Source: a virus (lineage: Duplodnaviria; Heunggongvirae; Uroviricota; Caudoviricetes). Taken from it: a stretch of DNA of 4,544 nucleotides. The number at the start of each line of letters is the position of its first letter. Position 1 is the stretch's first letter. Position numbers: made by a program. This document shows positions 1 through 3,000 of the stretch, in pieces. The DNA lies in the IMG/VR virus record IMGVR_UViG_2534681979_000017, positions 1 to 4,544 of that record. One strand, given 5' to 3'.

Positions 1-3000
1 CATACGCGTGAAACAAGAACACGTACGCAATATGAAGTGGTATATGGTGCATATAAAGGTAAAGAATCCCAGCAGATTTATTTTGTTCCCTTTATGACCG
101 ATGGTAGCGGAGTTAATACACCGACAAACAACCCGTCAGAAGATCCTGATATTGCCGGGTCTGGTTATTACGGTTCGGCATCCCGAACGAACAAAAACTG
201 GGTATCATCAAATCGCCCGACGCATTTCAGCTCATGGGCGCGTCGTGGCATTATTCCCGATCGTATGGCAACTGCTATTCTGAACGTAGCCGGGCGCACC
301 TCAGCCTTCATCAGTGGTAAGGCACCGGAAATCAAACCCTCGCCCGGCGTCGACACGCCATCGGGGCCGTCTGAAGATGCATCCGTACGCACAATCTCCC
401 TGTTGCCGACAGCCGGAGATGCTGCTGCGCAGGGCTGGAGCATTAAGAATGGCGGAATTCAGTTGTCAGATGGTGTATTTAAGATCACCAAGCAGAGCAA
501 TAAAGCCTGGTCCCTGACGCGCCCGGTGGATGACGCAGTCTCCCTGCTGACACGGGGTGGCAGACTGAGCTGTAAGTTTCGACTGTCAGGCGCACTGACC
601 AACAACCAGTTCGGTCTGGGAATTTATCTGTATACCGATGTAGCGTTACCTGACGTCGTGGCGATGACCGGGACTGGTAACCCGTTCCTGATGTCGTTCT
701 TCACCCAGACCACAGACGGCAAACTGAATCTGATGCATCACAAGAAAGCAGGAAACACAAAGTTGGGCGAGTTCGGGAATTACAGTAACGACTGGCAGAC
801 GCTGGAGCTGGTGTTCACCGCCGGCAGTGCCACGGTTACTCCGAAACTGAATGGAGTGGCTGGCCCGGCATTCCAGGTCATAAAAGACAGTCTGACAGTG
901 GGACTAAATGCACTGACGCTGACGGATATTACCAAAAATGCAACGTATGGCGTTGAGATAGAAAGTCTGGTGCTGGAGATAAATGCACCGGCATCATCAT
1001 AAAAAGTGAGCCAGTCAAATGGAAGGTATCGTTAAACTCACCGGTAGTGTCAGTGGGTCGTCTGAGATGCCTGCATGAGTTATCAGAGCCATCAGTACTT
1101 AACTGGTGGCTTTTTTATTGTTGTCAGCTTCCGGATAACGGGAGACGGGGTATGTACCAGATGGAAAAAATCACAACAGGTGTGTCATACACCACGTCAG
1201 CGGTGGGAACGGGCTACTGGTTCCTGCAGTTGCTGGACAGGGTTTCCCCGTCTCAGTGGGCGGCAATAGGCGTGCTGGGGAGTCTGCTGTTTGGGCTGCT
1301 GACATATCTGACTAACCTGTATTTCAAAATCAGAGAGGACCGTCGTAAGGCGGCGCGGGGGGAGTAAAGCGATGAAGAAAAAATACGAACTGGGTGTTAA
1401 AGGGATAAATAATTATCCGGATAAGATTACTGTTACTGTGGCACTGGAAATTGGTGGGTATCCGTCACTGTTGTTGCCAGATGTGGCGATTAGTCTTGAC
1501 CGTACTGAAGGTGCCACGCTGGAGTTTTACGAAGCTGAGGCGAAAAAGCAGGCGAAGCAGTTTTTCATGGATGTTGCTGCCGGGTTATGTGAAGGGAACG
1601 AACCGTTGCCGGAAAAGCGCCCCATAATTTTAGAGGCGCAGGATGTGTTGATAACCTACAAAGGAAAGCTACCGGGAAGAATTACTGGTTCTCTGAAGAT
1701 GCCGCCGTCAACACTGCGGTCAGAAAAAGAGGCGTCTTGTCTGCAGTCTGAGTACTCCATTACGGTTAAAAGTGCCGGAGAGGAAGGAAATAAACGTTAT
1801 TTTATTGCGTCTGCACCTGATAAAGATCAGGAATGGGAGTGTAACCGGCCATCCTTTGTTGTATACGGAGATGGCGGGAAAATAACCATCTCAGAAAATG
1901 GGAAATTAACACCGCCATCGCACCAGCATAGTGAGGCGCTCATTGAATTTGCCATTGATTACCTGAAGAACAATAAAAAGCAGGGGCTGATGAAGCGCGT
2001 TGGCCGTTGCATGGGATATCTGCAGATAGCTGCTGAGATTGAAGCGCTGGCCAGTGGTGCGGACAATGATGCAGTTGTGCTGGAGGCTCTTCTGCGTGAT
2101 TTTGATAATACGCCTTTAAGAAAGCACCTGTTGACTGGATGCAGCCGGGGATGACTTATCTGAAAGGGCGTATATAAGGTGGCTCGTTATCTGTTGCTGG
2201 ATAATCGACTGAAGATGCGTTCTTTTTGTGTTTTTGCGTAATGATTGTCCCACTCACAATCAAGGTAGCTTAATTCTTCATTCAACCAGTTATTTATATT
2301 GGTCTTAATACGCATAAGCATGGGCTGTGTTAATGCTCTGGCGATAATGCCGAGAGTCACAGGTGTGAGATGTCCATACGGCTCAGCCTGAATGGATTTT
2401 ACTGCATCGTGTTCTTGTGGGAGGAGTAAGAGGCACTCTGATTTTACCCGCTCATTTATGGCTTGCAGGCATAAATCATAATTATGTTGATCGTTATGCA
2501 TGGTTAATCCTCTACTGAAATTGTCAGATATATTTCAGCCATCAGGAAAAACGCCAGTGTCCTACCGCTGGCGGGCTGAAGATTTAACATATCCAGGGAT
2601 TCGGAACCGATAAATCCTGATAAATATCCATGAACACCAAAATCAAATATGGCCTGTCGGCTGCCGTTCTGGCGTTGATTGCCATCGGTGCGCCTGCGCC
2701 TGAAATCCTCGACCAGTTTCTGGATGAAAAGGAAGGCAACCACACCACGGCATACCGTGATGGTGTGGGTATCTGGACCATCTGCCGTGGTGCCACCCAG
2801 GTGGATGGTAAACCTGTTATTCCGGGCATGAAACTGTCGAAGGAAAAATGCGACCAGGTTAATGCCATTGAACGGGATAAGGCGCTGGCATGGGTGGAGC
2901 GCAATATTAAAGTTCCACTGACCGAACCACAGAAAGCGGGTATAGCGTCATTCTGTCCCTATAACATTGGCCCCGGTAAGTGTTTCCCGTCGACGTTTTA

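Follow-up and report, generated by a model that had tools for sequence, protein, structure and literature searches.

The 4,544-nucleotide (nt) viral sequence analysed here, positions 1 to 4,544 of IMG/VR record IMGVR_UViG_2534681979_000017 (hereafter the window), is the lysis region of a Stx-type lambdoid prophage. The Stx2-converting phage 86 is its best phage match (96% over 81% of the window), and the segment 1372-2640 shows 99.3% identity to a prophage of E. coli O104:H4 and related strains, including 55989. Between the genes for the holin (S) and the endolysin (R), on the strand opposite to the late operon, lies ORF104, an open reading frame (ORF) of 104 amino acids (aa) that converges with a plus-strand ORF, the partner, and is separated from R by a divergent 128-nt spacer. 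Our comparisons indicate that ORF104 is a genuine gene under purifying selection and optional cargo at this site.

A minus-strand gene in the lysis region

A sequence-only reading of the window had proposed a single minus-strand gene of 104 aa at 2187-2501. These coordinates were confirmed, and ORF104 is the sole convincing gene on that strand of the window. The ATG at 2501 is the first start codon past the upstream in-frame stop. The good Shine-Dalgarno (SD) site described earlier, GAGGA, lies 6 nt from this ATG and is unchanged in all 11 upstream variants of the window-type alleles, that is, the allele group with 61-100% protein identity. The gene is also AT-richer than its surroundings, as had been remarked: its G+C content of 41.0% compares with 49.4% over the window, 52.8% in R and 54.6% in the holin gene, and at third codon positions the fraction is 0.42, versus 0.56 in R and 0.68 in the holin gene.

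Of 5426 complete E. coli genomes, 95 contain full-length, 315-nt copies of ORF104 with 77-100% DNA identity, all of them annotated as coding sequence. We compared 46 loci: the window, four loci from genomes and, for the rest, IMG/VR prophages. In every one of them the 104-codon frame is unbroken, with nine distinct proteins, no insertions or deletions, and protein identity that falls as low as 61%. The ratio of nonsynonymous to synonymous substitution (dN/dS, Nei-Gojobori) is 0.24-0.52 in the ORF104 frame; other frames over the same DNA give about 0.6-2.8, save, as is to be expected, for the opposite-strand frame that has its wobble position in common with ORF104. Endolysin R in the same loci has a dN/dS of 0.07-0.14, which makes the ORF104 ratio 3-5 times higher. 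ORF104 is thus constrained, yet its protein evolves 3-5 times faster than the endolysin.

Might ORF104 instead be a frame that is open by chance in AT-rich non-coding DNA between the partner and R? It carries no known domain, and its expression is a prediction from sequence; both points would suit such a view. We nevertheless consider it highly improbable. Conservation of the frame across all 46 loci, despite nine protein variants and extensive divergence, effectively refutes a chance origin, and a dN/dS well below 1, a conserved SD site, a confident AlphaFold model and homologues of about 105 aa (28-54% identity) in other contexts all argue against it.

The AlphaFold2 model, built from a shallow alignment of eight sequences, is a compact five-helix bundle (predicted local distance difference test, pLDDT, 88.2; predicted template modelling score, pTM, 0.82), with predicted helices at residues 3-26, 32-39, 47-56, 59-78 and 83-101. 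Read from the sequence, ORF104 has neither a signal peptide nor a transmembrane segment, and its N-terminus (MHNDQHNYDLCLQ) lacks a hydrophobic signal sequence. It has no recognisable catalytic or DNA-binding signature. The isoelectric points (pI) of its relatives range from 4.6 to 9.3, so net charge is not conserved.

The protein had earlier been said to match nothing, and this no longer holds. Databases already list it as a hypothetical protein (WP_000551290.1; in phage 86, YP_794053.1 or Stx2-86_gp06), and it belongs to phrog_1853, a family without assigned function (E = 8.4e-50, residues 1-103). Full-length matches to phrog_1853 were also obtained with the P0037-type allele (5e-47) and with the conjugative-element relative P0041 (2e-17), both described below. 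The phrog_1853 profile is about 56 N-terminal positions longer than ORF104; the extra positions probably come from members with over-extended starts, for example P0007. Other homology and structure searches were uninformative. Neither Pfam nor NCBIfam gave a match for ORF104, and Pfam gave none for 15 family members even at E values up to 10. ORF104, its relatives and the partner had no match at E <= 0.1 in PADLOC-DB 2.0, which covers anti-phage defence and toxin-antitoxin systems. Single-sequence and profile searches of the PDB with ORF104 returned only one designed protein (E = 0.019), Foldseek comparison of the model with BFVD returned nothing at E <= 0.001, and Rfam had no match in the whole window.

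A search of 5.8 billion proteins recovered 13 clusters with the single sequence and 41 with a profile; the clusters with a named source are all from E. coli, and named relatives overall are from E. coli or Shigella. About ten further real relatives, of about 105 aa and with 28-50% identity, emerged when 1.84 billion cluster representatives were scanned with a profile. Two giant repeat proteins, P0018 and P0029, were judged to be spurious matches arising from composition or repeats. Scans of one-genome-per-species GTDB contigs, made with the family alignment and with the distant member P0014, found no relatives; an ORF104 alignment that includes the distant members is too divergent for pattern scanning. 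The results show an orphan family limited to mobile elements of E. coli and Shigella, namely prophage lysis cassettes and an integrating conjugative element. PerC/Pch proteins resemble ORF104 in being all-helical, 104 aa long and antisense in the same neighbourhood (the lysis/terminase junction) of lambdoid prophages of enterohaemorrhagic E. coli (EHEC). Homology to them is not detectable, however (hhalign probability 0.2%, no match to the Pfam PerC family, PF06069), and we rejected this relationship.

Table 1. Positions of genes and sequence elements in the window; the last row gives homologues in two other loci.
Feature	Position	Strand	Basis or remark
NanS-p-like esterase, C-terminal part (DUF6645)	37-1002	+	
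Class II (S21-type) holin, upstream edge of cargo slot	1152-1367	+	Pfam Phage_holin_2_1, E = 9e-33
Partner ORF, 260 aa, N-terminal DUF1327/YdfR domain and C-terminal domain (phrog_1085)	1372-2154	+	Pfam, PHROGs
ORF104, 104 aa, predicted cytoplasmic five-helix protein (phrog_1853; WP_000551290.1)	2187-2501	-	
Shine-Dalgarno GAGGA of ORF104, 6 nt before ATG	2508-2512	-	Read from sequence
Perfect 7-bp inverted repeat, 10-nt spacer	2515-2521/2532-2538		Judged chance
Terminator-like element: hairpin 2573..2552, then TTTTT 2551..2547	2547-2573	- (ORF104-sense)	
Candidate sigma-70 promoter for ORF104	2586-2614	-	Rough position matrix
Divergent ORF104-endolysin spacer, 128 nt	2502-2629		Strong sequence constraint
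Endolysin R (phage lysozyme, hydrophobic N-terminus), downstream edge of cargo slot	2630-3163	+	Pfam Phage_lysozyme, E = 5e-25
Several small membrane ORFs	3164-3805	+	
Rz / Rz1	3806-4273 / 4026-4211	+	
P0037-type homologue	L012 3959-4273; L017 5001-5315		

The holin-endolysin slot and the convergent partner

ORF104 and its relatives fall into four groups that differ in their surroundings. Window-type alleles always lie between the plus-strand partner and the endolysin gene, convergent with the former. The P0032-type (52% identity) has the same layout, with a partner that is 57-64% identical. The P0037-type (about 54% identity) also runs antisense in the gap between holin and endolysin, where neither a partner nor a remnant of one is seen, and is present in 674 of the 5426 complete E. 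coli genomes, including many O157:H7 strains. The most divergent group (31-38% identity) is found in 36 genomes in the cargo region of an integrating conjugative element, together with TraG_N, TIGR03756/7 genes and an integrase, and with ArdA about 6 kb away. These relatives adjoin a membrane protein, which we considered as a counterpart of the phage partner and set aside as unrelated.

The P0037-type protein WP_000138558.1 is annotated with 90 aa. Starting instead at an in-frame ATG further upstream (position 3959 of locus L012) gives a protein of 104 aa that matches the family over its full length, so RefSeq has probably placed the start 14 codons too far downstream.

Phage YYZ-2008 and strain GN05505 carry the order holin, YdfR, 50 nt, endolysin, without a minus-strand gene, and the segment with ORF104 is covered by only 2 of 485 matching phage records. 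In E. coli O145:H28 RM13514 (NZ_CP006027.1; locus L015, 1815-2516, minus strand), what lies between a YdfR-type gene and that of the endolysin is another ORF, at most 233 aa long. RefSeq does not annotate this ORF, searches of Pfam, PHROG and PADLOC give no match to it, and it is preceded by the same hairpin-bearing 77-nt segment as ORF104. Because close relatives lack ORF104 and RM13514 has another ORF in its place, the holin-endolysin gap appears to be a small cargo hotspot with at least four alternative contents, of which ORF104 is one. Downstream of the endolysin gene in E. coli A34 (NZ_CP028741.1; locus L006, 4142-5931), a Panacea-domain protein and a ParD/ParE toxin-antitoxin pair replace Rz/Rz1, which we take as a further sign that the lysis cassette attracts cargo.

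The partner consists of an N-terminal DUF1327 domain (PF07041; residues 1-100, E = 7e-44, 148 bits) and an unrelated, conserved C-terminal domain of about 130 aa (phrog_1085) that has no Pfam match and was found in E. coli and Shigella only. Its 3' end is frameshifted in the window, where a C is missing at about position 2113 and the last 20 or so codons are altered; the versions in phage 86 and O104:H4 are intact. Where the partner is intact, 9 nt separate its end from the stop codon of ORF104. The partner C-terminal domain adjoins ORF104 in each of the 43 IMG/VR loci whose flanking sequence is long enough. The N-terminal part is swapped between loci, being either a DUF1327 allele (57-100% identity) or a coiled coil, and the holin gene is shuffled too, while the C-terminal domain, ORF104 and the spacer stay together. 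Window-type and P0032-type alleles are tightly linked to the convergent partner gene. The structure model of the partner is poor (pLDDT 46) and unfit for a fold search.

YdfR of the Qin prophage, a DUF1327 protein, occupies the same holin-endolysin slot, and database summaries of the region bear the label "YdfR family protein". This label belongs to the plus-strand neighbour of ORF104; ORF104 itself has no PF07041 match. For K-12 YdfR, a recent report describes binding to the N-terminal, catalytic half of RNase E and perhaps to RNA (PMC13232886); nothing ties ORF104 to this activity.

The constant pairing raises the possibility that ORF104 and the partner form a two-gene convergent module, in which the partner C-terminal domain would be a late effector and ORF104 a regulator or antidote made in the lysogen and silenced by head-on late transcription. 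Pairing in every IMG/VR locus with closely spaced stop codons, in spite of a shuffled N-terminus and holin, is the main argument for such a module; its persistence in the divergent P0032 group and the restriction of both families to E. coli and Shigella also fit. We regard the module as a doubtful, though still appreciable, alternative. Obligate coupling is opposed chiefly by the P0037-type, which keeps an intact 104-aa ORF in hundreds of genomes with no trace of a partner, and by the conjugative-element relatives with their unrelated neighbour; the window itself, where the partner is frameshifted and ORF104 is intact, also reduces the weight of this view. Moreover, a 9-nt gap leaves no room for recombination and could alone explain the linkage. 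The partner model gives no structural clue, and neither protein resembles a defence or toxin-antitoxin component in PADLOC.

A more far-reaching version of this view would make ORF104 and the partner C-terminal domain a new effector/antidote pair switched by transcriptional collision, with ORF104 as a new-fold helical inhibitor or an exclusion or anti-defence factor, made in the lysogen. ORF104 would be switched off once Q-antiterminated late transcription starts, the partner would be made along with holin and endolysin, and the promoter-like element and leader hairpin of the constrained spacer would set the switching threshold. We consider this version rather unlikely.

Constraint and signals in the spacer upstream of ORF104

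The Jukes-Cantor distance of the spacer is 0.03-0.11, compared with a dS of 0.14-0.58 in ORF104 and 0.18-0.92 in R for nearly all the same locus pairs. In most pairs the spacer thus evolves several-fold slower than the flanking synonymous sites, and it is far better conserved than neutral change would leave it. Only its R-proximal 57-77 nt are common to loci that lack ORF104. A direct repeat, two copies of GATAAAT, lies at 2609-2625 just before the R start codon, and R has no obvious SD site.

With a rough position matrix, the best promoter candidate upstream of ORF104 consists of a -35 element TTTATC (2614..2609), a 17-nt spacer and a -10 element TATGTT (2591..2586), with a predicted start at about 2577-2579; it ranks only eighth on the minus strand of the window. 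The same element is found upstream of the P0032 group (TTTACA-17-TATGTT, rank 1 in locus L007) and, in a TG-extended form, upstream of the P0037 group (rank 2 in L012). We treat it as a candidate ORF104 promoter, proposed by inference from the spacer sequence.

The GC-rich hairpin downstream of this candidate has folding energies of -11.8 kcal/mol in the ORF104 sense and -14.4 kcal/mol in the antisense. The sequence-only reading had noted neither this hairpin nor the linkage to the partner. All 11 upstream variants retain both the hairpin and its T-run, which are also found beside the other cargo ORF in RM13514. Most of the variants that are not window-type, such as those of loci L004 and L006, have a perfect 8-bp stem, and several carry G.U wobbles; in locus L003 a scan flagged the element as terminator-like (3387-3367, minus strand), with a G.U pair at the stem base. 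Wobble pairs specific to one strand point both ways, with two kinds of change in favour of the ORF104-sense RNA and one in favour of the late mRNA. The hairpin might insulate against minus-strand read-through from morons further downstream, act as an attenuator in the leader, or serve as a stabilising stem-loop at the 5' end.

These features would also suit a device in which minus-strand transcription or RNA, rather than the protein, damps leaky late read-through into the endolysin gene in the lysogen. A minus-strand transcript started in the spacer would meet late transcription head-on just upstream of R, the spacer is highly constrained, and the conserved hairpin and U-run lie on the ORF104-sense strand. 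The earlier reading had suggested that antisense transcription might interfere with endolysin expression. Since ORF104 is transcribed away from R, any such interference could act only through polymerase collisions upstream of R, and not through antisense RNA over R. A role confined to RNA leaves the purifying selection on amino acids, the never-broken frame and the confident fold unexplained; the conjugative-element relatives have no lysis genes nearby, Rfam recognises nothing here, and the leader fold is unremarkable (z = -1.7). We therefore hold this alternative to be quite unlikely.

The sequence-only reading had also drawn attention to the inverted repeat between the SD site and the presumed promoter region as a possible regulatory site. 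The repeat exists; its regulatory role did not survive comparison. At least one repeat of this kind occurs in 12.1% of dinucleotide-preserving shuffles of the 128-nt spacer, and the window as a whole holds 11 of them. Uncompensated substitutions or a 1-nt insertion, as in CTGAAAA...AATTCCAG, break the repeat in 8 of 11 distinct variants of the upstream sequence, which account for 21 of the 46 loci; it is perfect only in window-type upstream variants. Because of this frequency in shuffled sequence and the lack of conservation across alleles, we judge that the repeat is probably due to chance. A LexA box was considered for the same region and rejected by eye, the arms being CTG-N18-CAG rather than CTG-N10-CAG.

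Little speaks for ORF104 as a DNA-binding autoregulator with this repeat as its operator. The position of the repeat, and a protein that is small and helical, would fit that role. An unconserved operator at chance level, the absence of any match to a helix-turn-helix family or fold, and a range of pI values that leaves no conserved basic surface make it very unlikely.

ORF104 as a probable moron-like accessory gene

The interpretation that we favour, and consider on balance probable, is that ORF104 is a moron-like accessory gene carried as cargo by lambdoid prophages of E. coli, that it is expressed while the late operon is off, and that its product works by binding protein. ORF104 would be transcribed from its own weak sigma-70 promoter in the conserved divergent spacer that it has in common with the endolysin leader, independently of the Q-dependent late operon and head-on to it. 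Its product would be made while the late operon is silent, in the lysogen or early in infection. During lytic growth, Q-antiterminated late transcription would silence the gene by collision and through fully complementary RNA, as for lambda bor. The protein would bind another protein, whether of the host, of a competing phage or of the convergent neighbour, rather than DNA; protein binding is the likelier activity because pI is variable, evolution is fast and there is no helix-turn-helix signal.

In the Hendrix/Juhala definition, a moron is an extra gene between two genes that are neighbours in related phages, with a promoter and a terminator of its own and a deviant base composition, and it is expressed from the repressed prophage. 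The bor gene of phage lambda, next to Rz and opposite in strand to the late operon, is said to be a moron that lysogens express. The earlier moron-like reading stands in two respects: ORF104 is an extra gene between genes that are adjacent in related phages (YYZ-2008 and GN05505), and its composition differs from that of its neighbours. It fails in a third, as no terminator of its own was found downstream, where an intact partner ends 9 nt away.

The proposed likeness to bor likewise holds in geometry and not in homology. Both are small opposite-strand genes in or next to a lambdoid lysis cassette, have their own ribosome-binding site, are optional among related phages and differ in composition from their neighbours. 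From this geometry, expression is expected when late transcription is off; for ORF104, expression in the lysogen is a prediction. Bor, a lipoprotein of the outer membrane, has a signal peptide; ORF104 is predicted to be a soluble helical protein and has none. ORF104 also has no lipobox and no Pfam or NCBIfam match that would place it in the Bor/Iss family, and the two are unrelated in sequence and structure. Their positions differ as well, ORF104 lying between S and R without a terminator after it and bor lying after Rz, and phage 86 carries both, with bor as a separate gene at its usual site. ORF104 thus joins a known type, the antisense accessory gene in the lambdoid late region.

Several observations weigh against this interpretation. 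The candidate promoter is weak, with hexamer matches of 3/6 and 4/6, and a scan for consensus promoters found none upstream of ORF104 on the minus strand. The candidate is equally conserved in a YdfR-only locus without ORF104, so its conservation may reflect the endolysin leader instead. The hairpin sits between the candidate promoter and the SD site and, taken at face value, would stop transcripts that start there. Since a minus-strand scan found no intrinsic terminator 3' of the ORF104 stop, the promoter-gene-terminator layout of a moron is incomplete. The constant linkage of window-type alleles to the partner fits a two-gene module better than a solitary moron. Finally, no family, PDB or informative fold match assigns a biochemical role to ORF104, and literature searches on its accession numbers, on antisense genes in lysis cassettes and on EHEC transcription start maps gave no usable result, and no transcript data among them.

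If it is expressed from the prophage, ORF104 would be one more function expressed in lysogens. Its family may be present in up to about one-seventh of complete E. coli genomes: of 5426, the three allele groups that can be detected by DNA account for 95, 674 and 36, and these sets may overlap. Among the carriers are O104:H4, 55989, many strains of O157:H7 and a Stx2 phage. At present ORF104 is a well-supported but ordinary hypothetical accessory gene that implies no new mechanism. A confident fold without an informative structural relative makes it a reasonable target for function discovery, for example in exclusion, anti-defence or lysis control.

Some further features of the window lie outside the slot. 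Relatives of endolysin R carry a lysozyme annotation. Two strong hairpins with T-runs, resembling intrinsic terminators, lie on the late-operon strand, at 1085-1113 ahead of the holin gene and at 3254-3286 just past the endolysin gene; Q-modified polymerase presumably reads through both. The plus-strand interval between R and Rz (3241-3805) is a variable block of small hydrophobic ORFs, including a 43-aa ORF (3456-3587, phrog_4906) and a 70-aa frame (3241-3453, phrog_6632); two more short frames have the motif RA[LM]AFAI[KR] in common. In O104:H4 this block has another length and content, and phage 86 carries an ant gene there instead.

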